17,267 bases of DNA. It comes from a virus (taxonomy: Duplodnaviria; Heunggongvirae; Uroviricota; Caudoviricetes). The number at the start of each line of letters is the position of its first letter. Position 1 is the first letter of the stretch. This document shows, piece after piece, positions 379 to 17,267 of this stretch. Position numbers and translations under genes: made by a program. The DNA lies in the IMG/VR virus record IMGVR_UViG_2565956714_000008, positions 1 to 17,267 of that record; one strand, given 5' to 3'. Under the pieces are notes generated by a model, which searched no databases, had not been told where the DNA came from, and saw nothing but the letters and a program-made list of their open reading frames with translations.

Positions 379-393
379 GTTGGAGTCATTACC
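1..393 (+). mobile_element. IS1 insertion sequence, 3'-terminal 393 bp (rest of element lies upstream of window start)
   Basis: 1-378 translates to the C-terminal part of IS1 InsB; 371-393 (atcaataagttggagtcattacc) is the IS1 terminal inverted repeat. Recognised from memory of IS1. Confidence 0.9.
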
Positions 394-2564: not shown

Positions 2565-3356
2565 TCATTGAAAACTGCTTTTAGAACTTGATACAACGGG
2601 ACTAGTCACAACAGGACTATTCTCAACGGGATCATCCTCAGAGGAACTATCATCAAAGTCATCATCCATAAATAAAATATCATCGAATGGTGCCACGCCC
2701 GTGATGAGTTTTATTTTATTATTACGATCAGTCAATACTCCACTTAAACCGTTTTCGCTCACAGGTTTTAATGATTTTTCATTACTCTTGTTGTAAGCAG
2801 GCGCATTAAAAATACACGGAGTATCAACATCAAACAATGACGTTCCCCAGTTCACATATTGAATATCATAGTTACTGAAGTTCTGTCCAGAAAAGAAGCA
2901 CCCCTTAAAATCCAATCCACGTAAATTATATAAACCACCCTCTTCTTTTTGGAGAGTAATGTTAATTTTGGCTATCTCCCGGACATCATCGCCATTTTTG
3001 TATTTGAATACCGTTTCAAGATGTTCTCCAGACAGCTTGACTTCAGGAAATAATTTGAAATCAAAGCCTATATTATTATGTGTCAACGTAGATGAACAAA
3101 AAATGGAAAAAGCTTGCAGTGCTGAATTATAGCTATCGATTTTATCTTGAGGCTGAGCTCTTGGTAAAAACTTATAGCAACACTCATAAAAATTAAACAG
3201 AAGCTCTGAAGACCTTGTATTTTTATCAAATAATACCCCCTTGAACTCATTCACAAACGCATCTTTTTTTTCTTGAATATCTATGGGGTGTTCCTTTGAC
3301 TCTGACAAAGATGAAATCTCATCTATTTTGTTTTCATATGAATTACGTGATTCCAT
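2565..3356 (-). CDS. Hypothetical protein, 263 aa, AT-rich, acidic Ser/Asp-rich C-terminus
   Basis: Long uninterrupted minus-strand ORF in AT-rich DNA; no recognisable domain; no clear Shine-Dalgarno before ATG 3356. Position corresponds to ypjB if my recollection of the K-12 gene order is right. Confidence 0.55.
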   Translation of the reverse strand: MESRNSYENKIDEISSLSESKEHPIDIQEKKDAFVNEFKGVLFDKNTRSSELLFNFYECCYKFLPRAQPQDKIDSYNSALQAFSIFCSSTLTHNNIGFDFKLFPEVKLSGEHLETVFKYKNGDDVREIAKINITLQKEEGGLYNLRGLDFKGCFFSGQNFSNYDIQYVNWGTSLFDVDTPCIFNAPAYNKSNEKSLKPVSENGLSGVLTDRNNKIKLITGVAPFDDILFMDDDFDDSSSEDDPVENSPVVTSPVVSSSKSSFQ

Positions 3357-3455
3357 ACAGACATTTGGCGGCGTTTCTAAAATAACACTACGCGTACTAC
3401 TTGGCTTAAGTAAACCAACATGAAAATCACTTTTTCTTATATTATCGAAAAGGTT

Positions 3456-3938
3456 CTATTCATTTCTTTTAGCGCATTCAAAAAACTGATCGGCATTATT
3501 TTTATTCGATAATTTTTTAGTTTCAGAAAACACATTTTCATTGTTTTCCAGCTTTAGTTTAATGAGAAGATTTTCCCAGACCTGCTTGCTTAAACATATT
3601 ACGTCAGGCTCACCAGAACTAACTAACTCGTGATTATTATTAAAGTGTACGTTGAATACCTTTAAGTTATTTTCACCAACTTCATATTTAATACGTTTTA
3701 ATTGTTCTCCAGCTCCCATAATGACAAAGGCGTTGCCTTCTTGATATATACATTCAGACATCATTTTTTGTAAAGTTTCAAGAGCACCGCGATACGTCTC
3801 TGATGCAGCTTCCTTACAAATTAATTTTAAAATACTATGAGCTAGTAGCTCCATGTGTTTAGAAGATTTATTTTCATTATAACTTCCACTACCCAAAACT
3901 GCGCTAGCGTTAAATCCGTTGCTTTTACTAACTAACAT
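3456..3938 (-). CDS. Hypothetical protein, 160 aa, AT-rich
   Basis: Minus-strand ORF with GAGGA 7 nt upstream of ATG 3938; same strand as and 100 bp upstream of the 263-aa ORF (likely co-transcribed). No recognisable domain. Position corresponds to ypjC in K-12 gene order. Confidence 0.55.
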   Translation of the reverse strand: MLVSKSNGFNASAVLGSGSYNENKSSKHMELLAHSILKLICKEAASETYRGALETLQKMMSECIYQEGNAFVIMGAGEQLKRIKYEVGENNLKVFNVHFNNNHELVSSGEPDVICLSKQVWENLLIKLKLENNENVFSETKKLSNKNNADQFFECAKRNE

Positions 3939-4688
3939 TGTCTATTCCTCAATTAATGTCTACATGGCTATTTTTAATGTTATTACTGTTTGTCACTATA
4001 AAAAAACGCTCATTTGAGACAATTACTGACATTAACTGCTTCACTTGCTACGCATGGAACTTTTAATTAAATTAGCACAGGAATGTTAAATTTAATAAAC
4101 AAAAGGTTATTTCGCTGTATGATAAAAAAAACCGTTATAATTTATTAGTGAAAATCGTTTTTCAAGTGTTAGAAATTTATATCTCAATAGCGTTGGTTAA
4201 TGAGCATAGCCACGCTCCTGTAACGCTCACAAAACTCATCTGCCTGCGGCGGGTGTTCTGGTCAGTAGTAGATGTTTAAGGCGTGGCAGAGACATTTCAT
4301 CCTTACTCTACGGCATTGTTCTACATACATTGGTTGTGGTACTCACTTATCATCAGTGAGCGAACAGAGAATAGTTCAGTGATTTGAGTAATTAACCTGA
4401 TTAAATGAAGGGGTATAATAAATGATAATACTCTGGCTTTATCGTTAATTACTTAATTCCACATGTAAGCAATTTGCCCGCTTGGCATAGCAGGCATTTT
4501 TTCCAGGTACTTTTGAATGAGTACTGATGGATAAATACATTGCAGTGGCGTGCCACGTACCAAAACACCAGCCCTCATTCGAAACCACCCACCGCACTTC
4601 TTCCTTGAAATGGCGTTAGTCATGAAATATAGACCGCCATCGAGTACCCCTTGTACCCTTAACTCTTCCTGATACGTAAATAATGATT

Positions 4689-4733
4689 TGGTGGCCCTTG
4701 CTGGACTTGAACCAGCGACCAAGCGATTATGAG
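4689..4733 (-). repeat. att core copy: 45-nt duplicate of the tRNA-Ile2 3' end (acceptor/T-arm to anticodon loop), marking the left boundary of the integrated element
   Basis: tggtggcccttgctggacttgaaccagcgaccaagcgattatgag matches 15430-15474 at 44 of 45 positions (single C/T difference); the sequence diverges immediately after, and the region upstream in tRNA orientation is not tRNA-like. Confidence 0.85.
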
Positions 4734-4842
4734 TTGGTTGATAACCCTTTACTTACAGATACTTAGCGATACTTTTCAATACCTTAGCATTTTTTAAAAC
4801 TACTGTATAAATACCTGTATATACCCCAAAATACTTCTTTAC

Positions 4843-4890
4843 GGTATCCTATAGGTATCCTGGAGCAGAACAAGCGATTTTCCAGGATAC
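4843..4890. promoter_or_regulatory. Putative integrase arm-type binding sites (GGTATCCT direct repeats plus inverted copy)
   Basis: ggtatcctataggtatcctgg at 4843-4863 and inverted copy tccaggatac at 4881-4890; a near-identical block ggtatcctataagtatcctgg occurs at 15367-15387 beside the other att core. Function inferred. Confidence 0.4.
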
Positions 4891-4914
4891 CAGATCGCTT
4901 GGTGGGGTGTATGA

Positions 4915-6336
4915 GTGAAATTATTCAGATTCTCTAAAGTAAAAATTGCAGAACTGCCAACGCCGGAACATGGACAGGTCGAATATGGTGATACGGAGGT
5001 TAACGGGCTGCGTGTCCGTGTAGGTTCGTCTGGTGTGAAAAGTTTCTGCATTTCCCGTAAGCGTAACGGAAAATTTATTCGTGCAACGCTGGGGCGTTTT
5101 CCTGATCTGAGCGTGGATAATGCCAGGGCTAAAGCTATGGAACTCCTTGGCGAAGTCGCCACAACGGGGATAAATCCGAACATAGCAAAGCGCACTAACA
5201 ACAAGGCCATGATAACGCTGAGTGAGGCGATTGACGCCTACGTAAAAAATCGTGGCCACCGCCTGAAACCCTCCACAGAAAAACAGTACCGCAGCATATT
5301 ACAGAATTATTCCGGTGACTGGATGGCCCATACCCTCGCCAGTATTTCCCGCGAACGGGTGGAACAACGGCATAAGGCCATCACTGATGGGGCTGTATGG
5401 TTCGGTGCTGATAAAACCACGTTACGGGCTGGGGTTGGTACAGGAAGCAAGGCACAGGCCGATTTATGGGCGCGTGCGCTACGTGCTGTGTGTCGGTTTG
5501 CGCATGATCATTACCGTGATGATGCGGGTAATACTCTTTTACCGGATCCGCCGACTCTGGTACTGAGCACCAAGCGCCAGTGGCACGGAACGGTAAGAAA
5601 AACGGAACGTATCCGCCTGCATGATTTTCCCCGCTGGTTTGCTGCTGTAGCTGCTGTGCGCGACCAGGGCGAACAGGAAAGGGATGATATAGCTGTTACG
5701 GTATGTGATGCCGTGGAAATGGCACTGTTTACCGGACTGAGGAAATCAGAAGTTTTTGGCCTTACGTGGGATCGCGTGAATATGGGCGGTCGCTTTTTCT
5801 GGATAGACACCACGAAAAACGGGGATCCGCTTGAACTGCCGATCACTGATACGTTGCGGAAAATGTTTCTTCGCAGGCTAAAAAACAAAGCTGCTGATGA
5901 TGTGCTGGTGTTTCCTGGCGTGAAGGGAGTGATTCAGGAGACACGGCACATCATAGACCGGATAAGCGCGGCTACCATTCCTGAGGCGAACGATGAAATG
6001 CTCTTCCCTGTCCCGTTTAAGTGGCACGACGCACGCCGGACGTTCGGAACGGTTGCTGAGCTGGTGGGCGTGGGTAATTACATCCTCAAGCGCCTGATGA
6101 ATCACCGCACTATGCGAAGTGCCGACGTAACGCAGGGGTATTTACATTTCGGTGCTGATGAACTGCTGGAGCCAGCATCACGGATAGAACGGGCAATTCT
6201 GGAACATGCCGGGCTGGTGGAGAGTAAAAAATCTATCGATGCGCAATTACTTTCCGCACTGGAGGGCATGAGTGATGATGAAAAACGTCGTTTACTATTT
6301 GCTATAGTACAAGAAAAGAATGACATATATGGGTGA
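4915..6336 (+). CDS. int: Tyrosine recombinase / integrase, P4-like with N-terminal arm-binding domain
   Basis: 473-aa ORF starting GTG 4915. The N-terminus (LPTPEHGQVEYGDTEVNGLRVRVGSSGVKSFCISRKRNGKFIRATLGRFPDLSVDNARAKAMELLGEV) fits the arm-binding domain pattern of P4-family integrases; C-terminal region has catalytic-domain signatures (LFTGLRKSEV, HDARRTFGT, TQGYLHF). Lies 180 bp inside the att repeat. Confidence 0.9.
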   Translation: MKLFRFSKVKIAELPTPEHGQVEYGDTEVNGLRVRVGSSGVKSFCISRKRNGKFIRATLGRFPDLSVDNARAKAMELLGEVATTGINPNIAKRTNNKAMITLSEAIDAYVKNRGHRLKPSTEKQYRSILQNYSGDWMAHTLASISRERVEQRHKAITDGAVWFGADKTTLRAGVGTGSKAQADLWARALRAVCRFAHDHYRDDAGNTLLPDPPTLVLSTKRQWHGTVRKTERIRLHDFPRWFAAVAAVRDQGEQERDDIAVTVCDAVEMALFTGLRKSEVFGLTWDRVNMGGRFFWIDTTKNGDPLELPITDTLRKMFLRRLKNKAADDVLVFPGVKGVIQETRHIIDRISAATIPEANDEMLFPVPFKWHDARRTFGTVAELVGVGNYILKRLMNHRTMRSADVTQGYLHFGADELLEPASRIERAILEHAGLVESKKSIDAQLLSALEGMSDDEKRRLLFAIVQEKNDIYG

Positions 6337-7045
6337 TAACAATATATCGGTCAAACAATATATTATTTATTCGGTTATGAATGATTTAATTACTGGTGGG
6401 CGAGACTCTTCAGTTTTAAACGTTCCTGTATCTTTATCCCCGAAAAACTCCACCATAGAGGCTATAAAACGCTTGATTGATGATATAAGAGATTATTTTT
6501 ATAAATCAAAGTATCCAACAAGAGAATTTCTTTTGTGTTATGGTTTAGAATTAAGAGAAATCGAGCAATATCCTATTGAATTAGCTATAAGAATGGATTC
6601 ATGTGGTTTTTTAATATTTGATAGTAAACTATCTTGTCAGGTTGTCGATACTTTAAATTCAGCAGTTGCATTGTACCATGTCGGAATGCGTAATCACGCA
6701 GACAAACTTACTAGGGTTGGTGTTGAGTTATTGCTTAATGACTTTTTTGAAGAAATTATATCGAACCATGAAAAAGATAAAAAAATAAAAGATGCTTTAT
6801 CCTTATCACAGAAAGAAAAAGCGCGCAAACCAAGAAATCATTATTACAATGAAGTTATGCACGTAATTAAACTAACATGGGAAAAGTACCCTAAAGCCAG
6901 TAAAACAGGTTTATTGAACGAGCTTTCTGTTTACTATCATGGGAAAGTAAGTAAAAACACTCTGGATAAATGGATTAAAGAATCAGGAGCACAACCACCA
7001 AGACCTGATAAATATTCTTCGTTTGAACTTGTTCACCCCCAATAG
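6320..7045 (+). CDS. Hypothetical protein, 241 aa, markedly AT-rich cargo gene; possible HTH near C-terminus
   Basis: ORF overlaps the integrase stop by 17 nt (ATG 6320; alternative ATG 6329). Base composition is visibly more AT-rich than the flanking integrase and regulator genes. No recognisable catalytic motif; C-terminal KASKTGLLNELSVYYHGKVSKNTLDKWIKE looks HTH-like. Confidence 0.55.
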   Translation: MTYMGDNNISVKQYIIYSVMNDLITGGRDSSVLNVPVSLSPKNSTIEAIKRLIDDIRDYFYKSKYPTREFLLCYGLELREIEQYPIELAIRMDSCGFLIFDSKLSCQVVDTLNSAVALYHVGMRNHADKLTRVGVELLLNDFFEEIISNHEKDKKIKDALSLSQKEKARKPRNHYYNEVMHVIKLTWEKYPKASKTGLLNELSVYYHGKVSKNTLDKWIKESGAQPPRPDKYSSFELVHPQ

Positions 7046-7073
7046 CTGGCTAGTGTATCTTAATAGCTGGCTA
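7041..7073. repeat. Two direct repeats aatagctggcta spaced 21 bp, upstream of the Xis/AlpA-like gene
   Basis: aatagctggcta at 7041-7052 and 7062-7073; a partial third copy (ctggctatt) near 7110. Possible regulator binding sites. Confidence 0.3.
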
Positions 7074-7150
7074 TTAAGGCTAAATAACTGGTAACCTCCC
7101 CACAGCAACTGGCTATTGGGCTAAAAACAAAATACCCATTGATTGATATT

Positions 7151-7184
7151 TATCACCGTTGTTACTTAGAAGTACACGGTGATA
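7151..7184. promoter_or_regulatory. Inverted repeat TATCACCGT-N16-ACGGTGATA overlapping the ribosome-binding region of the downstream HTH gene; candidate operator
   Basis: Perfect 9-bp arms at 7151-7159 and 7176-7184. The half-site TATCACCG resembles lambda-type operator half-sites, although the spacing differs from lambda operators. Confidence 0.4.
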
Positions 7185-7187
7185 GAT

Positions 7188-7397
7188 ATGAATTTAAAGA
7201 AATCTGATTTATCAACTGACCGCCTTACACGTGCTGAAGCTGCTGCCTACCTTGGCGTTAACAATCAAACGCTGGCGAACTGGGCCTGTACTGGCAAGGT
7301 AAAAATCCCTTTCCATAAGCTGGGGCGCAAAGTGCTGTATATGCGCACTGATCTCGATGCTTATCTTGCATCCACTCGCAGAACGCAGACGGTGTAA
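7188..7397 (+). CDS. Xis/AlpA-superfamily helix-turn-helix DNA-binding protein (excisionase-like or induction regulator)
   Basis: 69 aa from ATG 7188 (track start GTG 7179). LTRAEAAAYLGVNNQTLANWACTGKVKIPFHKLGRKVLYMRTDLDAYL fits the excisionase-family HTH pattern (L..EAA.YLGVS..TL..W...G.IP..K.GR...Y...DLDAYL). Confidence 0.75.
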   Translation: MNLKKSDLSTDRLTRAEAAAYLGVNNQTLANWACTGKVKIPFHKLGRKVLYMRTDLDAYLASTRRTQTV

Positions 7398-7744
7398 GGG
7401 GGAGTGATGGCACATAAAACAAAGGCGACCGCAGAGGGCCGCCAGTGGCATAACACTAAACTTGAGCATATCCAGAATACCAGGTTGTTGGCTGGTGGGC
7501 AATGCTATCAGTCTGGCTCGATTCGCTGCCATGCCTGCAATGAGCGTATTTTCCTAGAATACTCTTTAAGGTACTTCTCAAGGATAAACGCACATGGTGC
7601 GAATCTCTCCGGTTCATGTTCGTTTACCGCATTTTTGCGTTGTTTTTTCTTGGATGAGGATAATTTCTTTAATGATTTGTCAGTCATCGTAGATACCTGT
7701 AACCCTGTGCGCCACAGTTCACCGCACCACGGCGCTGGTGATGG

Positions 7745-7870
7745 TTACTCCTGCTCTTTGGCCTTGCGCCGCTGGCGGCGTTTGATCTCATCAAGGATTT
7801 TTCTTGGTAAGAAGCCTGCTGGTTTATTCTCTGGTAGAGAAAGTTTGTTATCGGTCTGCTTTTCAGTCAT
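7745..7870 (-). CDS. Small basic protein, 41 aa, translationally coupled to the upstream RHH gene
   Basis: ATG at 7870 lies 3 nt after the RHH stop codon (ATGtaTGA arrangement); encodes MTEKQTDNKLSLPENKPAGFLPRKILDEIKRRQRRKAKEQE. Below the ORF-track length cut-off; a weak call. Confidence 0.25.
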   Translation of the reverse strand: MTEKQTDNKLSLPENKPAGFLPRKILDEIKRRQRRKAKEQE

Positions 7871-7873
7871 ACA

Positions 7874-8065
7874 TCAGCCTTTAGGTTCAATGCCGCGTCG
7901 CTTTAGTTCGGCACGAGCTAATTCTTTAAACCAATTGCCGAGGGTTAGGCCATCGGCGGTTGCTGCCTCGTTTACTTGCTGGCGTAGTTCTTTGCTAATT
8001 CGTATCTGGAATGTCGGCGACCATCCCTCGCCGCGTGGTGATTTATCCCGCTTTAATGTTGACAT
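7874..8065 (-). CDS. Ribbon-helix-helix (Arc/CopG-like) DNA-binding protein, candidate repressor
   Basis: 63 aa; ...FQIRISKELRQQVNEAATADGLTLGNWFKELARAEL has the beta-strand/helix/helix layout of RHH proteins. Its start codon is embedded in a perfect palindromic operator (8064-8109). Confidence 0.6.
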   Translation of the reverse strand: MSTLKRDKSPRGEGWSPTFQIRISKELRQQVNEAATADGLTLGNWFKELARAELKRRGIEPKG

Positions 8066-8109
8066 GTACGTACGTAACTCCTATTATCATCAATATTACG
8101 TACGTACAT
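8064..8109. promoter_or_regulatory. Palindromic operator: two copies of the self-complementary 10-mer TACGTACGTA within perfect 14-bp inverted arms, in the divergent promoter region
   Basis: atgtacgtacgtaa (8064-8077) and ttacgtacgtacat (8096-8109) are exact reverse complements, separated by 18 bp that include the RHH gene's AGGAG ribosome-binding site. Confidence 0.55.
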
Positions 8110-8133
8110 TAACAGTAAGTGCAACAAAAAACA

Positions 8134-8168
8134 AAGCCCCGCAAGTGTCGTTACCACTCGCAGGGCTT
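8134..8168 (-). terminator. Hairpin with 12 of 14 paired bases, followed by a U-run on the minus strand only
   Basis: aagccccgcaagtg / cactcgcagggctt with loop tcgttac; A-tract 8121-8133 gives UGUUUUUUGUU after the hairpin on the minus strand. On the plus strand it would sit in the 5' UTR of the replication operon. Function uncertain. Confidence 0.3.
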
Positions 8169-8204
8169 CTAACCACCAACGATAACGAGAGTATCGAGGT
8201 AGCT

Positions 8205-8408
8205 ATGAGAAATCATACCATACACCCGCAAGGGCGGGATTCGCACAACCTGAATAAATTCGCCTGGCGTTTTATCGCCCTGAGCGCCGCAAAACCGCGT
8301 GTGATTACCATCGTGGCCACCAGCGAACAGGAAGCACGCCAGCACTCCCCGGCTGGCTGCGTGATGGTATTCGCCGCCCGTATTCGTCAGGGGGTGTGCC
8401 ATGCCTGA
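8205..8408 (+). CDS. Hypothetical protein, 67 aa, first gene of the plus-strand operon leading to the replication gene
   Basis: ATG 8205 with GAGGT 5 nt upstream; codon usage on this strand is typical of E. coli coding DNA (ctg, gcc, acc, atc, cgt, ccg), unlike the overlapping antisense ORFs; stop overlaps the next start (8401). Confidence 0.45.
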   Translation: MRNHTIHPQGRDSHNLNKFAWRFIALSAAKPRVITIVATSEQEARQHSPAGCVMVFAARIRQGVCHA

Positions 8409-8721
8409 TATGTCAAATTACCAGTACCTGATTAATCCGCATTTTAACTGTGAGCATGATATTGCTAAAAAGGTTTATTCCGCTGCGGATGGGGCGACTG
8501 ACAATATATCAATGGCCGTTGCGTCAATTGGTAGCCTGATGTGGCATGCGTCAGAAAATGAGGACTATGACGAAAAGGCCATGCGCATTGATATGGGTAA
8601 TATCGGTTTGTTACTGGCAATGCTTGGACATTTTGATATTTCGTTACGGTGCACCATTGAAAATGCCACAGATGCATTAAATGCCATAAAGAAAGCGAAT
8701 ACTGATTCAAATCGGGGATAA
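8401..8721 (+). CDS. Hypothetical protein, 106 aa
   Basis: ATG 8401 with GGGGG 6 nt upstream; overlaps the preceding stop; no recognisable domain. Confidence 0.5.
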   Translation: MPDMSNYQYLINPHFNCEHDIAKKVYSAADGATDNISMAVASIGSLMWHASENEDYDEKAMRIDMGNIGLLLAMLGHFDISLRCTIENATDALNAIKKANTDSNRG

Positions 8722-8727
8722 ATAATC

Positions 8728-9027
8728 ATGAGAACGTATTTATCTGGCTTGACTGCCAGCGGTTATGCACATCCCAAAATTATCCCCGGCGCTATTTATC
8801 TGGATAAGAACGGTAACAGAGTAACGGTAAAAGAACTGATGTTTGACCGTGTGTATTTTATTCGTGATGGCTATTCATTTCATAGTTCGCTGAACGTGGA
8901 GATCTTTATTAGCAGATTCAGGCGGGAAATCCCGCTTTCCAGAAATAACCATGTGTCACGTGTGAATGTGGATAAAAAACTACAGGAACTGAAAAACATG
9001 ATTGCCGCGTGGAGAGAGCAGAAATGA
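8728..9027 (+). CDS. Hypothetical protein, 99 aa
   Basis: ATG 8728 (GGGGA 9 nt upstream); its stop overlaps the replication-gene start (ATGA at 9024-9027), indicating translational coupling. Confidence 0.5.
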   Translation: MRTYLSGLTASGYAHPKIIPGAIYLDKNGNRVTVKELMFDRVYFIRDGYSFHSSLNVEIFISRFRREIPLSRNNHVSRVNVDKKLQELKNMIAAWREQK

Positions 9028-10841
9028 AAAAAGCGCCAAATTTAAAACACCAGTCGCGTGACAAAATGACGGAAGTCATCATTTTTGCGGGTAGTGATGC
9101 GTGGGCACATGCGAAGCAGTGGCAGGAACAGGACGGGCGACTGGCTGGCGATAACGTGCCTCCTGTCTGGCTTGGAGAGCAACAACTTGCCGAACTGGAC
9201 AACCTGCAAATCGTACCGGACGGACGCTATCGCGTGCGTCTCTATCAGGCGGGGTTATTGCGTCCGGGGCTTGTTAATACCATCGGGCAGAAACTGGCAG
9301 CGGCAGGTGTCAGGGATGCTGATTATTATCCTGAAGGAATGCACAGCCAGAAACGGGAGAACTGGCGCGAATATCTGGAACGTGAACGGGCAGAGCAGGC
9401 GGAAAAGAAAAAGGTAGTTGAACTGCCTGTAAAGAAAAAAGAGCGGGTAAAAGACGATAACGCTTCATCACTGGCGCTTAACCAGATGGGAGCAAGTCAA
9501 CGCGGCGAAGTTCTCCTGGCACATTATGGCGGTGAATTGGCGATTCATGCTGACTCTGACACTGTTCACCATTACAACGGCGTTGTATGGGAGCCAGTAC
9601 AGGATAAAGAATTACAGCGAGCTATGGCACAGATTTTCATTGATGCGGAGATCAGCTATTCGCAGAACGCCATTAAATCGGCGGTCGATACCATGAAGTT
9701 AAGTTTGCCTGTAATGGGGAATACAGCCCGTAACCTGATTGGATTCAGTAACGGGGTATTTGATACCAGAACAGGTAATTTTCGGGGGCATAACAAAAAC
9801 GACTGGTTGTTAATTGCCAGTGAATTACCTTTCAGCCCACCAGCAGAGGGGGAAACACTGGCAACACATGCGCCGAATTTCTGGAAGTGGTTACGCCGTT
9901 CGGTGGCTGAGAATGACCGCAAGGCAGATCGCGTACTGGCGGCATTATTCATGGTGCTGGCGAACCGGTACGACTGGCAGTTATTCATTGAGGTAACAGG
10001 GCCGGGGGGAAGTGGTAAAAGCGTGATGGCGGAGATTTGCACCATGCTGGCGGGTAAGGCTAATACAGTATCAGCAAGCATGAAGGCGCTGGAAGATGCA
10101 AGGGAACGTGCGTTAGTGGTTGGCTTTTCGCTGATTATCATGCCGGATATGACCCGCTACGCTGGTGATGGGGCAGGGATTAAGGCCATTACAGGCGGTG
10201 ACAAGGTGGCAATTGACCCGAAACACAAAGCCCCCTACTCAACGCGTATTCCGGCAGTAGTGCTGGCGGTTAACAATAACGCCATGTCATTCAGTGACCG
10301 CAGCGGGGGGATCTCACGTCGTCGGGTGATATTCAATTTTTCGGAAGTTGTACCGGAGAACGAACGCGATCCGATGCTGGCGGAAAAAATAGAAGGTGAG
10401 CTGGCGGTAGTGATTCGCCATCTGCTTACACGGTTTGCTGACCAGGACGAAGCCAGACGCCTGTTATATGAGCAGCAGAAATCTGAAGAAGCACTGGCGA
10501 TAAAGCGAGAGGGGGATTCGCTGGTGGACTTCTGCGGCTATCTCATGGCGTCGGTAATGTGTGATGGCCTGTTAGTGGGTAATGCTGAAATTGTGCCATT
10601 CAGCCCGCGCAGGTATCTCTATCATGCCTATCTGGCTTATATGAGGGCTCATGGGTTTGGTAAACCTGTAACACTGACGCGCTTCGGTAAAGATATGCCT
10701 GGGGCAATGGCGGAATATGGCAGGGAGTATATAAAACGGAAAACGAAGCACGGTTTACGTTCAAACGTGACACTGACGGAGGAATCAGAAGACTGGATGC
10801 CATCATGTGTATCAGTCACTAATGACGATAGCAAAAATTAA
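9024..10841 (+). CDS. Replication initiator: primase/SF3-helicase-like P-loop NTPase (Pri-Rep type)
   Basis: 605 aa from ATG 9024 (GGAGAGAG 5 nt upstream; track start GTG 9009). Walker A VTGPGGSGKSVMAEIC and a downstream hydrophobic-acidic segment (LIIMPDM) as candidate Walker B, in the C-terminal half; immediately followed by an iteron cluster as in PICI/SaPI and P4-type replication modules. The N-terminal half has no motif I can assign. Confidence 0.8.
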   Translation: MKKAPNLKHQSRDKMTEVIIFAGSDAWAHAKQWQEQDGRLAGDNVPPVWLGEQQLAELDNLQIVPDGRYRVRLYQAGLLRPGLVNTIGQKLAAAGVRDADYYPEGMHSQKRENWREYLERERAEQAEKKKVVELPVKKKERVKDDNASSLALNQMGASQRGEVLLAHYGGELAIHADSDTVHHYNGVVWEPVQDKELQRAMAQIFIDAEISYSQNAIKSAVDTMKLSLPVMGNTARNLIGFSNGVFDTRTGNFRGHNKNDWLLIASELPFSPPAEGETLATHAPNFWKWLRRSVAENDRKADRVLAALFMVLANRYDWQLFIEVTGPGGSGKSVMAEICTMLAGKANTVSASMKALEDARERALVVGFSLIIMPDMTRYAGDGAGIKAITGGDKVAIDPKHKAPYSTRIPAVVLAVNNNAMSFSDRSGGISRRRVIFNFSEVVPENERDPMLAEKIEGELAVVIRHLLTRFADQDEARRLLYEQQKSEEALAIKREGDSLVDFCGYLMASVMCDGLLVGNAEIVPFSPRRYLYHAYLAYMRAHGFGKPVTLTRFGKDMPGAMAEYGREYIKRKTKHGLRSNVTLTEESEDWMPSCVSVTNDDSKN

Positions 10842-10853
10842 ACTTATGGAATA

Positions 10854-11085
10854 ACTGTTCACCACTGTTCACCCTGTCATAAATATCTTTTATATCAGTA
10901 TATTATAGGGTGAACAGTTATTTATGAACTATTCACCAAACTATTCACTGTTCACCTTTTTGGTTGTTTATTGAGCTTCAAGGGTGAACAGTGGTGAACA
11001 GTTGGTGAATAGTTTTTGTAAAACTGTTCACCCCTTAACAGTATGAATTTAAATGGAAAATATCAAAAGGTGAACAGGTGAAGGG
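10854..11085. repeat. Iteron-type replication origin: about 11 copies of ACTGTTCACC / GGTGAACAGT in both orientations within AT-rich spacers
   Basis: tgttcacc at 10856-10863, 10866-10873, 10949-10956, 11025-11032; variant tattcacc at 10930-10937; inverted ggtgaaca at 10909-10916, 10983-10990, 10993-11000, 11069-11076; variants ggtgaata at 11004-11011 and ggtgaagg at 11078-11085. Several copies are tandem with ~10-bp period. Confidence 0.7.
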
Positions 11086-11128
11086 TTAAAATACAAAAAT
11101 TTTAATTTATTGCTCTGAGATAAAGCCT

Positions 11129-11374
11129 ATGACAGCGAAGCGCACAAAAAAAACACAATCGCACGCCCTTGATTTGACGGAACACTGGTTAAGGGGGTCG
11201 ATAAAAATCATCGACCGCAACGCCGGGGAAGGATACGCGAAAGCACATCCCGAACTGATAAGCGCATTCATGACCACGGCGGCGGCAAATTTTGCCACGC
11301 TAACAGAGCGGGAGATTGCCGAAGCGGAACAGGTAACAACCATCAACGTTAAAACCGGAGAGCAGACAGCATGA
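11129..11374 (+). CDS. Hypothetical protein, 81 aa
   Basis: ATG 11129 with only a weak ribosome-binding site; stop overlaps the SSB start (ATGA at 11371-11374). No recognisable domain. Confidence 0.45.
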   Translation: MTAKRTKKTQSHALDLTEHWLRGSIKIIDRNAGEGYAKAHPELISAFMTTAAANFATLTEREIAEAEQVTTINVKTGEQTA

Positions 11375-11793
11375 CAGCACAGATAGCGGCTTACGGACGG
11401 CTGGTGGCTGACCCGCAGTTAAAGACCACTAGCAAGGGTACACAAATGACGATGGCTAGTATGGCGGTCCCCCTTCCGTGCAGCCAGGCAGATGACGGAA
11501 CGGCGACGATGTGGTTATCCGTCCTGGCGTTTGGCAGACAGGCCGACGCACTGGCAAAACACCACAAAGGCGAACTGGTGAGCGTGGCGGGTAACATGCA
11601 GGTAAGCCAGTGGACAGGCCAGAACGGCGAAACGCGGCAGGGCTGGCAGGTTATCGCAGACAGTGTAATCAGTGCCAGAACGGCGCGACCGGGCGGCAAA
11701 AAAGGTCAACAGGGCCAGGCTACTGACGCACTGAACAGGGCAAAACAACAGTCGGGGAATGATGATCCGTACGGCGATAATATACCGTTTTAA
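11371..11793 (+). CDS. ssb: Single-stranded DNA-binding protein (SSB) with acidic C-terminal tip
   Basis: 140 aa; OB-fold region WLSVLAFGRQADALAKHHKGELVSVAGNMQVSQWTGQNGETRQGWQVIAD parallels E. coli SSB ([51 protein letters not shown]); Gly/Gln-rich linker and C-terminal DDPYGDNIPF resembling the SSB tail DDDIPF. Confidence 0.8.
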   Translation: MTAQIAAYGRLVADPQLKTTSKGTQMTMASMAVPLPCSQADDGTATMWLSVLAFGRQADALAKHHKGELVSVAGNMQVSQWTGQNGETRQGWQVIADSVISARTARPGGKKGQQGQATDALNRAKQQSGNDDPYGDNIPF

Positions 11794-11803
11794 ATTCTGC
11801 AAA

Positions 11804-11839
11804 TAAAAAAATGCCGGAAGAAAATAGATTTTCCGGCAT
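11804..11839 (-). terminator. Stable hairpin (9-bp stem ATGCCGGAA/TTCCGGCAT) between ssb and the capsid gene, forming a canonical intrinsic terminator only in the minus orientation
   Basis: Stem 11811-11819 and 11831-11839, loop 11 nt; A-run 11804-11810 gives a U-run after the hairpin on the minus strand; no U-run follows it on the plus strand. Confidence 0.35.
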
Positions 11840-12010
11840 GCTACATAAATCCCGACCAAAGGAAGTAAATACATTAACACGAATTATCAGCACTGAAGTT
11901 GTCACGGCAGATTTTATACAACATTGCACTTGGTTGCATGTATTCGCATAGCAAATATCGGTGATAGCATATATCCACAATTATTTTTAATGAATGCAAA
12001 GAGGATGCGT

Positions 12011-13051
12011 ATGGTTGATTTATATTCGCCTGCCCAGCTTGTGCAGGTGGCTAATGCTGAAGATGTGCAAAAAAAATTAAATGTGTTGTTTACCAGTTTG
12101 TTTTTCACTCGCTCGGTAATGTTTGAATCGAGAGACATTATTCTTGATACGATCGACGATCCAAATATCCCGATCGCGGCGTTTTGCTCTCCTATGGTGG
12201 GCAGTAAAGTTTCACGAGATGAGGGATACGAATCAAAAACAATTCGCCCTGGCTATATGAAACCGAAAAGCAGCATTGATCCAAATAAGTTAGCTGTGCG
12301 CCCTGCTGGTGTGTCACCTGAGCAATACAATGCTTTTGGGGCGCGTAATATTAAAGTTAAACAGGCGATTGTAAATCAGGCTAAAGCTATTCGTACACGT
12401 ATTGAATGGCTTGCTGTTCAGGCAATCACAACGGGGAAAAATATCATTGAGGGCGATGGTATTGAACGTTATGAGCTGGACTGGAATATAAAACCACAAA
12501 ATATCATCACTCAGTCTGGCGGTACTGAGTGGTCAGGTAAGGATAAAGAAACTTTTGATCCAAATGATGATATTGAGAGCTACGCAGAATTTAGTGAGGG
12601 CGTCACTAATATCATCATTATGGGCGGTAATGTATGGAAGAAATACCGTTCATTCAGAGCGATAAAAGAGGCTCTGGATACCCGTCGTGGTTCTAATTCC
12701 GAACTGGAAACGGCCCTTAAAGACCTTGGTGATTCGGTGAGTTTTAAAGGGTATATGGGCGATGTTGCGATTGTTGTTTACAGCGGGCGTTATACCGACG
12801 AGGACGGAACTGAAAAATATTTCCTTGATCCTGATTTGATGGTGCTTGGCAATACGGCTCTCCAGGGGATTGTCGCTTATGGCGGTATTCAGGATCCGGA
12901 GCTAATCCGGATGGGGCTGACTAAAGCCGAACTTGCACCGAAAAACTATATTGTGCCTGGTGATCCGGCTATTGAATATGTGCAGACACATTCAGCACCA
13001 CAGCCAATACCGGCCCGTATCAATCGTTTTGTTACCGTTCGCATTGGCTAA
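12011..13051 (+). CDS. Major capsid protein, lambda gpE family
   Basis: 346 aa from ATG 12011 (AAAGAGGA, 5-nt spacer; track start 11924 is upstream in frame). Long colinear matches to lambda gpE as I recall it: ITQSGGTEWSGKDKETFDPNDDIESY vs ITQSGGTEWSKRDKSTYDPTDDIEAY; DTRRGSNSELETALKDLG vs DTRRGSNSELETAVKDLG; GDVAIVVYSGRY vs GDVAIVVYSGQY; MVLGNT in both. Confidence 0.9.
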   Translation: MVDLYSPAQLVQVANAEDVQKKLNVLFTSLFFTRSVMFESRDIILDTIDDPNIPIAAFCSPMVGSKVSRDEGYESKTIRPGYMKPKSSIDPNKLAVRPAGVSPEQYNAFGARNIKVKQAIVNQAKAIRTRIEWLAVQAITTGKNIIEGDGIERYELDWNIKPQNIITQSGGTEWSGKDKETFDPNDDIESYAEFSEGVTNIIIMGGNVWKKYRSFRAIKEALDTRRGSNSELETALKDLGDSVSFKGYMGDVAIVVYSGRYTDEDGTEKYFLDPDLMVLGNTALQGIVAYGGIQDPELIRMGLTKAELAPKNYIVPGDPAIEYVQTHSAPQPIPARINRFVTVRIG

Positions 13052-13061
13052 GGGGGGAGCA

Positions 13062-13403
13062 ATGGCTACTCATTACACTGAACTCATGGCTGGCACTGAA
13101 GCACTGGTTACTACGCTGGGGATATTTTCAGCTAATAAAGGGGTAATTCCTGCATTTACGCCACTGATGCAGGAAGATACAACAGGTGCACTGGTGGTAT
13201 GGGATGGTACGAGTGCAGGTAAAGCTGTTTATGTTTCCGCTGTACAACTCGATACAGCGAAAAAAACACAGGCTCAGGTCTATAAGACAGGTGTCTTAAA
13301 TGTTGATGCTCTTAACTGGCCTGAGTCAGTAAAAGAACTGTCAGTAAAGGTTGCAGCGTTTGTTGGCTCAGGTATTTCTGTTCAGCCGCTGGCTCGTGTG
13401 TAA
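13062..13403 (+). CDS. Head decoration protein, lambda gpD family
   Basis: 113 aa from ATG 13062 (GGGGGGAG upstream). IPAFTPLMQEDTTGALVVWDGTSAGKAV...KTGVLNVDALNWPE...AAFVGSGISV parallels lambda gpD [28 protein letters not shown]...KSGTFRYEDVLWPE...TAFAGTAISIV. Confidence 0.85.
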   Translation: MATHYTELMAGTEALVTTLGIFSANKGVIPAFTPLMQEDTTGALVVWDGTSAGKAVYVSAVQLDTAKKTQAQVYKTGVLNVDALNWPESVKELSVKVAAFVGSGISVQPLARV

Positions 13404-13414
13404 AGGGGGATACA

Positions 13415-13798
13415 ATGCAGAATCATTACAATGACCTTAAGCCAATTGCCGAAATGATGTATCCGGATCCAGCAGTAGAGGAATTAAAGGCTATTGCTGA
13501 CAAAATGCGTTTAAGCGAGCGTCTTGTTGATATGAATCAGGTGATGGAACTTACAACCCTGAGTCGTCGTACACTGCTAAACCTTGAAGCACGTGGAGAG
13601 TTCCCCGAACGCGTGCAGGTTACGGAAGGGCGTAAGGCCTGGTATTTAAGCGAAGTGATCGACTGGATAAACAATATTCCGCGCGCTTCTGAATATTGCC
13701 GCGTACCTGTCCCAAAAAAGCCAGATGCGGCGCTATGCCTCAAGATTGATCGTGTACGCCGCAATGCACGGGATGGTCGCTATAAGCTGATTGGTTGA
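13415..13798 (+). CDS. AlpA-family HTH protein with ~40-aa N-terminal extension, immediately upstream of cos
   Basis: 127 aa, ATG 13415 with GGGGGA 5 nt upstream. MELTTLSRRTLLNLEARGEFPERVQVTEGRKAWYLSEVIDWINN fits the AlpA pattern (T.LSR.T...L...G.FP.PV.LG.R...W...EV..WI). Confidence 0.7.
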   Translation: MQNHYNDLKPIAEMMYPDPAVEELKAIADKMRLSERLVDMNQVMELTTLSRRTLLNLEARGEFPERVQVTEGRKAWYLSEVIDWINNIPRASEYCRVPVPKKPDAALCLKIDRVRRNARDGRYKLIG

Positions 13799-13822
13799 TG
13801 AAATTAGGGCCCGTTCTGGCTG

Positions 13823-14020
13823 GCGGGTCCTTTCCGGCGATCCGGTAGGCTACGGGGCGTCAGGCGCGCGGGTTTTCGCTTTTTATGAAAATTTTCCGGT
13901 TTAAGGCGTTTCCGTTCTTCTTCGCCGTAACTTTATGTTTTTATTTGAAACACCCCCTGAAAAGAAAGGAAACGACAGGTGCTGAAAACGGGCTTTTTGG
14001 CCTCTGTCGTTTCCTTTCTC
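13823..14020 (+). other. Lambda-type cos site: cosQ-like segment, cosN-equivalent 12-mer (13855-13866, divergent) and cosB with R3, I1, R2 and R1 elements
   Basis: From 13867 onward the sequence (cgcgggttttcgctttttatgaaaattttccggtttaaggcgtttccgttcttcttcg ... ctgaaaagaaaggaaacgacaggtgctgaaaacgggctttttggcctctgtcgtttcctttctc) is nearly identical to my recollection of lambda left-end bases 13-170, including R3 cgtttccgttct (13907-13918), R2 agaaaggaaacg (13963-13974) and R1 cgtttcctttct (14008-14019). Upstream gcgggtcctttccggcgatccggtaggctacg parallels the lambda right end ACGGGTCCTTTCCGGTGATCCGACAGGTTACG. The 12-mer is GGGCGTCAGGCG here versus GGGCGGCGACCT in lambda. Confidence 0.8.
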
Positions 14021-14339
14021 GTTTTTGAGCAAAACTGGCTCTATACATGCTTAGAAATGCTAGGGTTTTTGCGTAATACAGGTAGTGCAGGAGATTCACC
14101 AGGGGATTATTCATATATGCTGGTAGGCGCTATGTGTTAGTGGTGAGCGAAAAACAATCAAAACCGACACCGTAAAAATAAAAATCACAAATTATCAATT
14201 AGTTGTGCCAGTGGTGATGGCGAATGAAATTTCAAAAACTAGCCTTTTTCCGCGATGCTTTCGCCCCGTGGCAGGCCACCCCACCAGGAGGACCCGCTAC
14301 AATTACGGTATCAACCTCATCACTATGGAGGCCATGACC

Positions 14340-14624
14340 ATGACCGAGACCGAAGCGCTCGAAATAATCCGCAGTATTACCGGAATCAGCCAGGCAACAG
14401 GCAAACAGGAGGCCACGCAGCCGGACAGCGTCACCGCTGAAAATTACGCGCGTGTGGTGGCTGAGGTGATGCGCCGTGACGGTATTGAGCTTAACGGCGT
14501 GGATATGCGCAACATACGAACCAGAGTCCTTGAGTTGCTGGCATACCGTCGCCGTTCTCAACAACGGAGGGAGAGCGCGAAAAATACTTACCAGTGGAAG
14601 AAGCCGGAACGACTGCGGTGGTAA
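14340..14624 (+). CDS. Hypothetical protein, 95 aa, in the position lambda Nu1 occupies relative to cosB but unrelated to Nu1
   Basis: Best-supported start ATG 14340 (GGAGG with 8-nt spacer); in-frame alternatives at 14205 (GTG), 14217, 14325 and 14334. Arg-rich C-terminus; no recognisable domain. Confidence 0.45.
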   Translation: MTETEALEIIRSITGISQATGKQEATQPDSVTAENYARVVAEVMRRDGIELNGVDMRNIRTRVLELLAYRRRSQQRRESAKNTYQWKKPERLRW

Positions 14625-14642
14625 CTTGCTGATATTCCCGAT

Positions 14643-14890
14643 AACGCAAAATTGCGTTGGCTGGTGGGTGAGTTGCAGATCTGCAACTCGACCATGAAAC
14701 TACGGAAACTACCCGTAGTTTGGGTAGTAAGAGTAACACCCAGATTTTGGGGCTTACTCGCGATACCCAAATAAAGGGTATCGGTGGAAGAAATATCGTT
14801 TCTCATATGTGAGTACCGAGGGCGGAATTCCGCCTTCGGTTACTTATTGTGCTCATGCACAGGGAGAGGCGGGTACAAATCTCTGTACCC
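14643..14890. repeat. Cluster of six inverted repeats/palindromes in a ~250-bp non-coding stretch
   Basis: AACGCAA-aa-TTGCGTT (14643-14658); perfect 20-bp palindrome GAGTTGCAGATCTGCAACTC (14670-14689); AAACTACGG/CCGTAGTTT (14697-14721) overlapping ACTACCC/GGGTAGT (14708-14728); GATACCC/GGGTATC (14762-14782); GGCGGAATTCCGCC (14821-14834); GGGTACA/TGTACCC (14871-14890). Confidence 0.45.
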
Positions 14891-15033
14891 TGACGTCTTC
14901 CGGACTGCCAGCCCCATCGTTTTTTTACGCCCGCGAAAAATAAAAATTGTTTGTATGTGAGTATTGTAGCCAGCAAAAGCTCTTTCTTTAGTGGCTTATT
15001 GTTTCTAATAGATTTTGGGAGGTAGAAATGGGA

Positions 15034-15053
15034 GGCCCAGCGAAAGCTGGGCC
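15034..15053 (-). terminator. GC hairpin with GAAA tetraloop (GGCCCAGC-gaaa-GCTGGGCC) just downstream of the small minus-strand ORF
   Basis: 8-bp perfect stem; on the minus strand it follows the stop at 15072 and is followed by a C/U-rich tract (UCCCAUUUCU), so not a textbook U-run. Confidence 0.3.
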
Positions 15054-15071
15054 GAGCTTGTTACGCTGTCA

Positions 15072-15215
15072 TTACTTCAGCATGATAACTAAAGCTATAC
15101 ATACTAGCACTACGGCTATTGGGCATAGACCTAAATTGCCAAGTGCTGCGATTAAACCTGTAACGGCAATCACACGTGCAGACAGCAGGTCTGAGCCCTT
15201 TCTTAAAGTATCCAT
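15072..15215 (-). CDS. Small hydrophobic protein, 47 aa, with a predicted C-terminal transmembrane helix
   Basis: ATG at 15215 preceded by GGAGG with 5-nt spacer; encodes MDTLRKGSDLLSARVIAVTGLIAALGNLGLCPIAVVLVCIALVIMLK. Below the ORF-track length cut-off. It is antisense to the 100-aa plus-strand ORF 15028-15330, which also has a strong ribosome-binding site, so the call is uncertain. Confidence 0.35.
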   Translation of the reverse strand: MDTLRKGSDLLSARVIAVTGLIAALGNLGLCPIAVVLVCIALVIMLK

Positions 15216-15366
15216 TGATACCTCCGTCAGGGTTTTTGCCGGTCTCTTGGAGAGTTGGGGGCAAAAGTTCAGACCCGTAGCACTTTCTTGTTCGCAGGTG
15301 AACGGCTGCTACGACCCAACTGTTCTGTAGGCATGAGCCAATTCTTACTTGTTAATACTTCTCAGA

Positions 15367-15387
15367 GGTATCCTATAAGTATCCTGG
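15367..15387. promoter_or_regulatory. Putative integrase arm-type sites (second copy of the GGTATCCT repeat block)
   Basis: ggtatcctataagtatcctgg, 43 bp from the tRNA/att core; near-identical to 4843-4863 at the other end of the element. Confidence 0.4.
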
Positions 15388-15429
15388 TAAAGCAAGATAG
15401 TTTGGATACATCTGTAATTCATTGAAATC

Positions 15430-15505
15430 TGGTGGCCCCTGCTGGACTTGAACCAGCGACCAAGCGATTATGAGTCGCCTGCTCTAACCACTGAGCTAAA
15501 GGGCC
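15430..15505 (-). tRNA. ileY: tRNA-Ile2 (anticodon CAU, lysidine-type; anticodon-only tools would call tRNA-Met)
   Basis: Reverse complement of 15430-15505 is a 76-nt tRNA: GGCCCTTTAGCTCAGTGGTTAGAGCAGGCGACTCATAATCGCTTGGTCGCTGGTTCAAGTCCAGCAGGGGCCACCA, with 7-bp acceptor stem (one G-U pair), anticodon loop CUCAUAA and encoded CCA. It matches my memory of E. coli ileX/ileY and differs from elongator and initiator tRNA-Met. ileY chosen from the flanking gene order. Confidence 0.9.
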
Positions 15506-16064
15506 TTGAGTGTGCAATAACAATACTTATAAACCACGCAATAAACATGATGATCATATGATGTAAATAACAGATTTTTATGCGTTCCCATTCACCTTGG
15601 GTCGTGATTACACGCGACATAAAACCCGACACCGCCTCCATTCGCAAAGTCGATACTCGCAGTCAACAAGCAAATGTTAATAATTAGCACTATCTATAGT
15701 TATCATCGATTCAATGATACTTTGTAATGATTTTGTATCTAATAATATAACTTTATTACATTAGCTGAAGAGTTTTCGCATCATTATGATATCTGTTACT
15801 TTTCACTCCATAAAAATAAACTTCGTATAGCAATATATTCTTTCATAGATCTTATTCTGCTAATCATTAGTTTCGTATGAGCGATTTTTGACAGTTGCCT
15901 CTCCAGACCACATCGATAATTAATAAAACAGATTTAAGCATTATCCTTTTCCATATAAATATTGGATAAAAGTAGGACATCTGTTTGCAATTACTTTCAC
16001 AACAATTAAACATTTTTATGTTTCCGTATACATCATATTACTCTACCATTAGAGGAACTTTATT

Positions 16065-17267
16065 ATGTTTTCTATAAAACCAGGACCCAGAAATTTACCT
16101 ATCGACAACCCCACATTGTTATCATGGAACATTACTGACGGGGATCTAAATTCCAAATTAAATACATTAGAATATCTAAACTGTATAACAAATATTATTA
16201 ATTCTTGTGGAGTTTACCCTCAAGGATTAAAAGACAGAGAAATTATATCAACTTTTCACGCAGAAAAAGTTATTAATGATCTGTTAAAAAACGATTATAA
16301 AATTTCCCTTTCTCCAGATACAACTTACCGAGAGTTGAATAAAGCAGCACAGCGTAGCATTACAGCGCCAGACAGGATAGGAGAAAGAAAAACATAGGTT
16401 TATCAACGAGATACAATGATTGAAAGAGGTGATAACAGCGGTGTTTATCAGTATGGTCGTGCTGAACATTTCACCCACATTATATCTGACAAACCTTCCC
16501 CAAAAGATAAATATGTTGCATATGCTATTAACATTCCTGACTATGAGCTGGCAGCCGATGTATATAATATTAACGTGACGTCACCTTCCGGACAGCAAGA
16601 AACATTTAAAATATTAATCAATCCAGAACATCTACGGCAAACACTTGAGCGTAAATCTCTTACTGCTGTTCAGAAATCACAATGTGAAATCATCACCCCC
16701 AAAAAACCTGGCGAAGCGATTCTTCATGCTTTTAATGCCACCTACCAGCAGATCAGAGAAAATATGTCTGAATTTGCACGTTGCCATTATGGGTATATAC
16801 AAATCCCTCCAGTGACAACTTTCCGTGCCGACGGACCAGAAACTCCCGAAGAAGAAAAAGGTTACTGGTTTCACGCTTATCAACCCGAAGATCTTTGTAC
16901 CATCCACAATCCAATGGGAGATTTGCAGGATTTTATCGCATTGGTTAAAGATGCTAAAAAATTTGGTATCGATATCATTCCTGATTATACCTTTAACTTT
17001 ATGGGAATCGGGGGTAGTGGTAAAAATGACCTGGATTATCCCTCTGCTGATATACGAGCGAAGATCAGTAAAGATATAGAAAGTGGTATCCCTGGCTATT
17101 GGCAAGGTCAGGTTTTGATTCCATTTACTATAGATCCAGTAACAAAAGAACGTAAACAAATCCATCCAGAAGATATACATCTCACTGCAAAAGACTTCGA
17201 AGCAAGTAAAGATAATATTTCTAAGGATGAATGGGAAAACCTCCATGCATTAAAAGAAATCGTTTAA
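16065..17267 (+). pseudogene. ygaQ: Alpha-amylase family (GH13-like) gene interrupted by a single in-frame amber codon
   Basis: ORFs 16065-16397 and 16416-17267 are in the same frame, separated only by TAG at 16395-16397 plus six sense codons. The downstream part carries amylase-like motifs (GYIQIPPVTT..., GYWFHAYQPEDLCTIHNPMGDLQDFIALVKDAKKFGIDIIPDYTFNFMG, compare G.TA.Q.SP..., W.RYQP..Y.L.TR.G..DEF..MV..C...GV.IYVD.V.NHM). Symbol from locus memory (ygaQ is next to ileY in K-12 and annotated as a pseudogene); amylase assignment is motif-level only. The gene ends exactly at the window end. Confidence 0.5.

Follow-up and report, generated by a model that had tools for sequence, protein, structure and literature searches.

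A lambda-type cos region without terminase genes, followed by a second, inverted predicted cos, in an EcCICFT073-family island of Escherichia coli

Background

The phage-inducible chromosomal island (PICI) EcCICFT073 possesses two cos sites, of which cos1 has been validated experimentally (PMC6092414, PMC6739421), and is packaged in phage-sized heads (PMC6092414). Its Rpp protein binds the small terminase subunit (TerS) of the helper phage, and the heterocomplex reads the island cosB and ignores the phage cosB (PMC6739421); a single element, R3-PICI, has been proposed for the EcCICFT073 cosB (review PMC9026076). In an earlier comparison of its cos sites with those of lambda and phi80, a phage cosB was found in neither, and the reason for having two was left open (PMC6739421). 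Another island, 11capE, a helper-embedded PICI of Escherichia coli NRG857c, shares 258 bp, at 90% identity, with the cos region of 50icd, its presumed helper prophage, and has no terS; packaging via this shared sequence was the presumption of the authors (PMC10111431). The DNA analysed here, a stretch of 17,267 nt (IMG/VR record IMGVR_UViG_2565956714_000008, positions 1 to 17,267; the whole stretch is called the window below), carries an element which, judged by gene content and synteny, is an EcCICFT073-family PICI (phage satellite) in E. coli. An initial annotation, made from the sequence alone, had recognized in it a lambda-type cos site, here designated cos1. The comparisons reported below describe cos1 as a complete lambda-type cos that probably serves in packaging of the island, and predict a second cos of another phage type in opposite orientation next to it.

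The arrangement at cos1 is not unprecedented, 11capE being a published precedent. Copies of a helper cos without terminase genes have also been described in SaPIbov5 (helper phi12), which in addition has a capsid-protein homologue, and in P4 (helper P2) (PMC6092414, PMC8569155); these two are likened to the present island by description, whereas their sequences, hosts or helpers are unrelated. What is new is the anatomy at the level of the subsites, a phage cosB set against the Rpp paradigm within one family, the convergent second site (cos2), and cohesive-end alleles enriched in satellites.

Anatomy of cos1 and its similarity to lambda cos

Alignment with phage cos regions had been proposed in the initial annotation as a check on its reading of the site. 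In a blastn search of positions 13780-14060 against 50,697 phage records, lambda-type cos regions matched 13824-14027; identity to lambda and DE3 was 90.7% over 205 bp (E 2e-73), and the closest named phages were YDC107_1 and PhiR46_1 (95.1%). For comparison position by position, a multiple alignment with 49 unique phage cos sequences was used, in which lambda bp x corresponded to window position 13854+x. In this alignment cos1 represented lambda -32 to +174 and was free of indels before bp 167. The following elements were located:

13823-14027, + strand: cos1, a complete lambda-type cos (blastn, multiple alignment, per-position comparison)
13825-13831, + strand: cosQ heptamer GGGTCCT, 23 bp 5' of the top-strand nick position, the spacing of lambda
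13855-13866, + strand: cosN cohesive-end 12-mer GGGCGTCAGGCG, by alignment with lambda
13854/13855 on the top strand and 13866/13867 on the bottom strand: predicted cos1 nicks, from the lambda alignment
13872-13904, + strand: I2 spacer (lambda bp 18-50), by per-position comparison
13904-13919, + strand: R3, a TerS-binding element (lambda bp 50-65, coordinates per PMC9026076), identical to lambda
13920-13962: I1 region with the predicted integration host factor (IHF) site and the intrinsic bend; lambda bp 71, 73, 80, 93, 97 and 102 are substituted
13963-13978, - strand: R2 element, inverted, identical to lambda
14004-14019, + strand: R1 element, identical to lambda

The order cosQ-cosN-I2-R3-I1-R2-R1 and the 12-nt end were those of lambda, N15 and Gifsy-1 (PMC4669245, PMC9026076), whereas in cos1 they were not followed by Nu1 and A. 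The cosN region read ACG/GGGCGTCAGGCG/CGCG, so that the CG dinucleotides at both nick positions were kept as in lambda. Relative to the lambda 12-mer GGGCGGCGACCT, bp 1-5 were identical and bp 6, 8, 9, 10 and 12 were changed; these are the five differences initially noted. Among natural cos sites, cosQ, the left half of cosN and the flanks of cosN are conserved (PMC4669245).

Within lambda bp 13-166, nine substitutions were observed (bp 27, 71, 73, 80, 93, 97, 102, 134 and 137), none of which lay in R3, R2 or R1. Eight fell between the R elements; the ninth, bp 27, was the sole one in I2, where bp 30-35, critical by mutagenesis (PMC4856287), were unchanged. Six of the nine were alleles common in phage cosB. 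The distance from cosN to R3 was exactly that of lambda, and the R3/R2 and R2/R1 pairs were recovered independently by an inverted-repeat scan. Thus, the initial identification of a lambda cosB with all three R elements was borne out, as was the resemblance of some 30 bp upstream to the lambda right end (27 of the 31 bp upstream of cosN identical). The similarity had also been said to stop after R1. Homology to lambda started 2 bp 5' of cosQ and stopped 8 bp 3' of R1, leaving 17 bp to the place where the Nu1 start codon would lie; the limits of homology are therefore the functional limits of a cos. No RNA family was found in 13300-14700 (Rfam), and a promoter and terminator scan gave no signal above shuffled expectation.

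Absence of terminase and Rpp genes

With lambda Nu1, gpA, the TerS of sister islands (see below), the DUF1441 TerS and RppA as queries, tblastn found no credible homologue in the whole window, in agreement with the earlier statement that no Nu1 or A gene is present; the lowest E-value, 0.016, belonged to a 30-aa stretch of RppA inside the primase gene. Among the open reading frames of the island, phmmer against PDB gave no match to RppC (6HLK), while RppA of CFT073, used as a positive control, matched 6HLK at 5e-31. Neither the sister-island TerS nor the DUF1441 protein had an informative match in PDB.

The element is thus distinguished from Rpp-dependent cos PICIs, as it has no rpp beside cos1 and its cosB is that of lambda, and from TerS-encoding PICIs, as no island-encoded small terminase was present in the window. 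Nor does it resemble a capsid-forming PICI (cf-PICI), having genes for gpE-like and gpD-like proteins only, without its own TerS, large terminase subunit (TerL), portal, protease or connectors. It agrees with satellites that mimic the helper cos, in that it has a helper-type cos including the TerS-binding region and no terminase genes. Since the element is a satellite, the lack of Nu1 and A after cos1 is to be expected.

Gene content and boundaries of the island

The island comprised 10,741 bp between 49-nt direct repeats 96% identical to each other, with the following features:

4686-4734: attL, left copy of the 49-nt repeat (repeat search)
4915-6336, + strand: tyrosine integrase (Pfam Arm-DNA-bind_3 and Phage_integrase)
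9009-10841, + strand: D5-type primase/replicase, 49% identical to the EcCICFT073 primase
10844-11035: iterons ACTGTTCACC, 4-5 copies, directly 3' of the primase gene
12011-13051, + strand: lambda gpE-like major capsid protein, 55% identical to EcCICFT073 c1499
13062-13403, + strand: gpD-like head decoration protein, 54% identical to EcCICFT073 c1500
13415-13798, + strand: 127-aa AlpA-family (AlpA/excisionase family) helix-turn-helix protein, immediately 5' of cos1
14340-14624, + strand: 94-aa phrog_1561 gene, 69% identical to the 93-aa gene downstream of EcCICFT073 cos2
15427-15475: attR, right copy of the 49-nt repeat, within the 3' part of the tRNA gene
15430-15505, - strand: tRNA gene with a CAT anticodon, annotated as tRNA-Ile in sister genomes, i.e. 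tRNA-Ile(CAU)

Other products predicted were an HTH_17 regulator, an Icd-like protein, a DUF4222 protein and a single-stranded DNA-binding protein (SSB). The iterons are probably the replication origin of the island. The integrase at one end, the att repeats at tRNA(CAT), the small size, the own primase and iterons, the lack of lysis and tail genes, and the synteny and homology with the late genes of EcCICFT073 are all those of a PICI.

The 127-aa AlpA-family protein was conserved (81-100%) at the same place in all sister islands. As a candidate for an Rpp it was rejected: its only structure match was to the AlpA-family protein 8C3T, and it had no similarity to the 137-aa protein of CFT073 at the same position. 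That 137-aa protein, upstream of EcCICFT073 cos1, had no Pfam match and is unrelated to the AlpA protein.

Comparison with EcCICFT073 and 11capE

The island and EcCICFT073 shared, in the same arrangement, primase, SSB, gpE-like and gpD-like proteins, a small gene, cos1, an inverted cos2 and the 93-aa gene, and both were without terminase genes. In both, cos1 lies between the gene that follows the decoration gene and the slot for a specificity gene, with cosQ, the cosN flanks and I2 conserved. EcCICFT073 departed from lambda exactly at R3; it has a non-phage cosB with rppA after cos1, a canonical cosN and a cos2 of PhiR12 type, whereas the present island has a lambda cosB, no rpp, the variant cosN and a cos2 of mEp460 type. 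Redirection by Rpp with a non-phage cosB and plain mimicry of the phage recognition site would thus occur in one island family. Where cosB is mimicked, mutation of the helper TerS would give the helper no escape unless its own cosB changed too.

Similarity to 11capE was 93.7% over 9418-14027, the match ending exactly at the end of cos1, and included the AlpA-like gene, the GGGCGTCAGGCG allele and the lambda-type cosB; neither island has a functional terS. The two differ in that 11capE is inserted in the helper capsid gene E and has another integrase, keeps about 25 codons of Nu1, has single changes in R3 and R2, and lacks cos2, carrying HEPN/DUF262 cargo instead. In the same NRG857c chromosome, 11capE (L268 8034-8330) has GGGCGTCAGGCG whereas 50icd (L269 6900-7200) has the canonical GGGCGGCGACCT, 5 of the 12 positions being different; satellite and presumed helper therefore have different cohesive ends. 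Such a satellite-enriched allele, differing between 11capE and its presumed helper, is a natural system for asking about isolation of cohesive ends.

The cohesive-end variant

Exact matches to GGGCGTCAGGCG with its flanks were found in 13 contigs of IMG/VR, of which nine were islands and three lambda-like prophages. Among the matches listed, 9 of 13 variant sites compared with 9 of 118 canonical sites were in islands (Fisher p ~1e-6), the islands being related to one another and not independent events. The exact variant had no match among named phages (megablast), the best distant match (95.2%) carrying a third allele, GGGCGGAAGGCG, which was present in phage YDC107_1 and, in complete genomes, in prophages whose terminase and head genes are intact.

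In the three prophages (L006, L012 and L018), the GGGCGTCAGGCG site was followed by Nu1 and gpA 98-99% and 99-100% identical to those of lambda, respectively, and none of the substitutions among 37 full-length lambda-type gpA and 67 Nu1 sequences went with the cosN allele. These findings indicate that GGGCGTCAGGCG needs no special terminase. Thus, a 12-mer that would give the distinct cohesive end initially predicted was observed, with the qualification that a terminase adapted to it is not required. Natural cosN variants cluster in bp 7-12 (N15 at bp 9 and 12; Gifsy-1 at bp 8, 9 and 11); TerL of lambda is insensitive to changes there, mutations in these positions having little effect, and it cuts cosN of lambda and of N15 equally well (PMC4669245). 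Four of the five changes in the cos1 12-mer were within bp 7-12. GGGCGTCAGGCG as a natural cosN allele tolerated by lambda-type TerL would fit these published genetics. The 205-bp cos1 segment may also serve as a ready minimal cos variant for transduction or cosmid work.

A second, inverted cos site

A second site, cos2, was too diverged from lambda for the regular-expression scan and was found through comparison with the DUF1441-type sister island L019. The sequence features were:

14028-14133: spacer between cos1 and cos2, the part from 14117 onward common to TerS-encoding sister islands
14134-14297, - strand: cos2, a predicted cos of mEp460/phi458 type without terminase genes (identity 85.4% over 163 bp, E 7e-44)
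14295-14289, - strand: cosQ-like GGGTCCT (sequence reading)
14266-14255, - strand: 12-mer GGGCGAAAGCAT (sequence reading)

On its strand cos2 read GGGTCCT, 22 nt, then CCACG/GGGCGAAAGCAT/CGCGGAAAAAGGCTAG. Its counterpart in mEp460/phi458-type phages is the region between the lysis and terminase genes, the small terminase there being a DUF1441 protein and the large one of GpA type; homology stopped about 55 bp short of the start codon of the phage TerS. Among 126 cos2-type sites collected, 76 of them in phage context, 12-mers ending in GCAT were present in 11 of 11 inverted island copies versus 1 of 76 phages, and GGGCGAAAGCAT was private to the window, E. coli KC-Dl-1 and one metagenome contig. 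Read in this way, the island has two cos sites that converge on each other from a distance of about 100 bp, both lacking terminase genes and each with the specificity of a different phage type. This inverted cos, so close downstream of cos1, had been overlooked in the initial annotation.

The first part of the spacer (14028-14116, ~90 bp) had close relatives only in KC-Dl-1 and the metagenome contig; in other E. coli genomes there were weak scattered matches of ~81%, located next to IS66/PAAR genes and where DUF1441 genes end.

The cos2 of EcCICFT073 (L141 26100-26345, - strand) matched the cos of PhiR12-type phages over 179 bp with 93.3% identity; ~135 bp of this match belonged to the cosB side, and in the phages it stopped 49 bp upstream of Nu1. 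By this alignment, it too is a bare phage cos. That the inverted cos belongs to another phage type points to a testable explanation for the presence of two sites in PICIs, namely two helper specificities. If so, two convergent cos sites would permit packaging by both lambda Nu1-type and mEp460 DUF1441-type terminases, which would answer why some PICIs have two cos.

Sister islands and distribution

Islands sharing the AlpA-like gene upstream of cos were of three types:

Type A: non-lambda cosB; 180-aa TerS after cos1; 78 of 5,426 complete E. coli genomes
Type B: lambda cosB; no such gene after cos1; the window, KC-Dl-1 and one metagenome contig
Type C: lambda cosB; hybrid or truncated Nu1 after cos1; L008 and 11capE

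Type A and the window had a common sequence through 13895, inside I2, and again from 14117, so that the exchanged cassette is what lies to the right of cosN. The 180-aa TerS-like gene was located at L001 14913-15452 and in sister loci (L009, L015, L041 and others), between cos1 and the inverted cos2. Its product matched Pfam Phage_Nu1 in the C-terminal half only (residues 63-147), which suggests that this TerS is a chimera, its DNA-binding domain being new and its TerL-binding half of lambda type. In three IMG/VR contigs (L008, L034 and L015), the island cos was joined to or beside pieces of defective lambda-like prophages (hybrid Nu1, truncated E, FI, FII, Z, U, V). Such arrangements agree with islands embedded in a helper and with island-prophage recombination at cos, of which L008 and L034 are actual cases.

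The sequence of the window recurred in an independent complete genome, that of KC-Dl-1 (99.9% across the cos region, 98.6% overall) and in a metagenome contig (99.84%); hence, cos1 is not an assembly artefact. The junction of R1 with the spacer was found in this one metagenome contig and in none of the IMG/VR contigs or GTDB species representatives, and the exact cosN variant was not found in GTDB species representatives. The near-identical islands were at two different tRNA-Ile(CAU) loci in unrelated strains, the window copy being adjacent to ypjA and an alpha-amylase pseudogene and the KC-Dl-1 copy to nfeF and mug/rpoD. These two loci, together with the metagenome copy, indicate recent mobility after acquisition of the cos.

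Proposed packaging mechanism and alternative explanations

Taken together, these data make it probable that cos1 is the working packaging site of the island and acts by mimicry, such that a helper terminase of lambda specificity would cleave the variant cosN and take up island concatemers for packaging. A lambda-like helper would induce the island, which would replicate from its own primase and origin. The helper terminase would treat the island concatemers as phage DNA, with Nu1 dimers and IHF bound on R3, R2 and R1, and gpA, placed at the unchanged distance, would nick on both sides of GGGCGTCAGGCG; DNA would then be translocated rightward until a later cos1, read through cosQ, is cut. With the phage cosB in place, the island can do without Rpp and without an island-encoded TerS, both of which are absent. 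As to history, recombination with a helper prophage within the conserved cosQ-cosN-I2 core probably brought in cosB with part of Nu1, and in the lineage of the window later trimming would have left exactly cosQ through R1. The initial prediction of a packaging signal without a motor, recognized by a TerS of lambda specificity and having a distinct end, is supported by the comparative evidence, i.e., the PICI-type element, the lambda R elements with their spacing, and the absence of terminase and Rpp genes.

Several observations weigh against this role of cos1. Cleavage at cos1, packaging, the transfer of the island and the identity of its helper are what we infer from anatomy, homology, synteny, distribution and the lack of terminase genes. 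One island copy is 22% of lambda length; to fill lambda-sized heads, about four copies would be required (43.0 kb, or 89% of lambda, a length inside the lambda packaging window), unless small capsids are used. The exact variant is rare (1 of 5,426 complete E. coli genomes and one metagenome contig), and in most sister islands the position after cos1 is still occupied by a TerS or Rpp-type gene. At bp 80, an island-private substitution worsens the best IHF-consensus match in I1 from one mismatch in lambda to two in cos1, while the bp 6 change lies outside the pattern of natural variation and is not among the N15 and Gifsy-1 variants. Finally, the expected virions of the presumed helper 50icd were not detected by the authors who described 11capE (PMC10111431).

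The rarity of the variant, and the finding that 78 other genomes have the TerS-encoding version at this position, would also agree with cos1 being a recombination scar, left when an island with its own cosB and TerS recombined with a lambda-like prophage and lost its specificity gene; transfer would then be crippled or take place via cos2 and mEp460-type helpers. Island-prophage chimeras joined at cos exist (L008 and L034), the ~25 Nu1 codons in 11capE could represent an intermediate stage, and cos2 is intact. However, the R elements, I2 and cosQ of cos1 are all intact, whereas 11capE has already changed in R3 and R2; the trimming stops exactly at the functional boundary, and the island is present at two att loci with 98.6-99.9% identity. 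An origin as a scar is thus considered unlikely. The same intact cosB in an island without Rpp, the known interference factor of the family, raises the question of whether cos1 is mainly a decoy that in multiple copies titrates the TerS or terminase of the helper in place of the missing Rpp, transfer being secondary, and interference is indeed a hallmark of PICIs (PMC6739421). For titration, neither cosQ nor a cosN that can be cleaved and has kept its flanks would be needed, and binding does not preclude packaging; a role mainly as a decoy is quite improbable. Lambda-like cos matches are so common (4,050 of 5,426 E. coli genomes) that the segment might be taken for the last remnant of a decayed lambda prophage unrelated to the island. 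Yet only 205 bp are lambda-like, these lie among island genes inside an att-bounded island at the cos1 position of EcCICFT073 and 11capE, and they move with the island between loci; a remnant is therefore hardly conceivable, and is effectively refuted by the synteny.

Satellites may also maintain private cohesive ends, which the helper TerL would still cut and which could not anneal with helper ends; dead-end helper-satellite chimeras or mismatched termini would thereby be prevented. A more general scheme can be put forward as a tentative and rather doubtful possibility: a swappable specificity cassette to the right of cosN, consisting of Rpp with an own R3, of a chimeric TerS with an own cosB, or of a bare phage cosB, combined with two bare cos for two terminase specificities and with private cohesive ends at both sites.

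Region to the left of the island

A stretch of low GC content (2500-4500, 32-36% GC) to the left of the island corresponded, in related genomes, to a DUF5507 pseudogene and a recombinase fragment. Judged from these genomes, it represents an older insertion next to the att site that has decayed.

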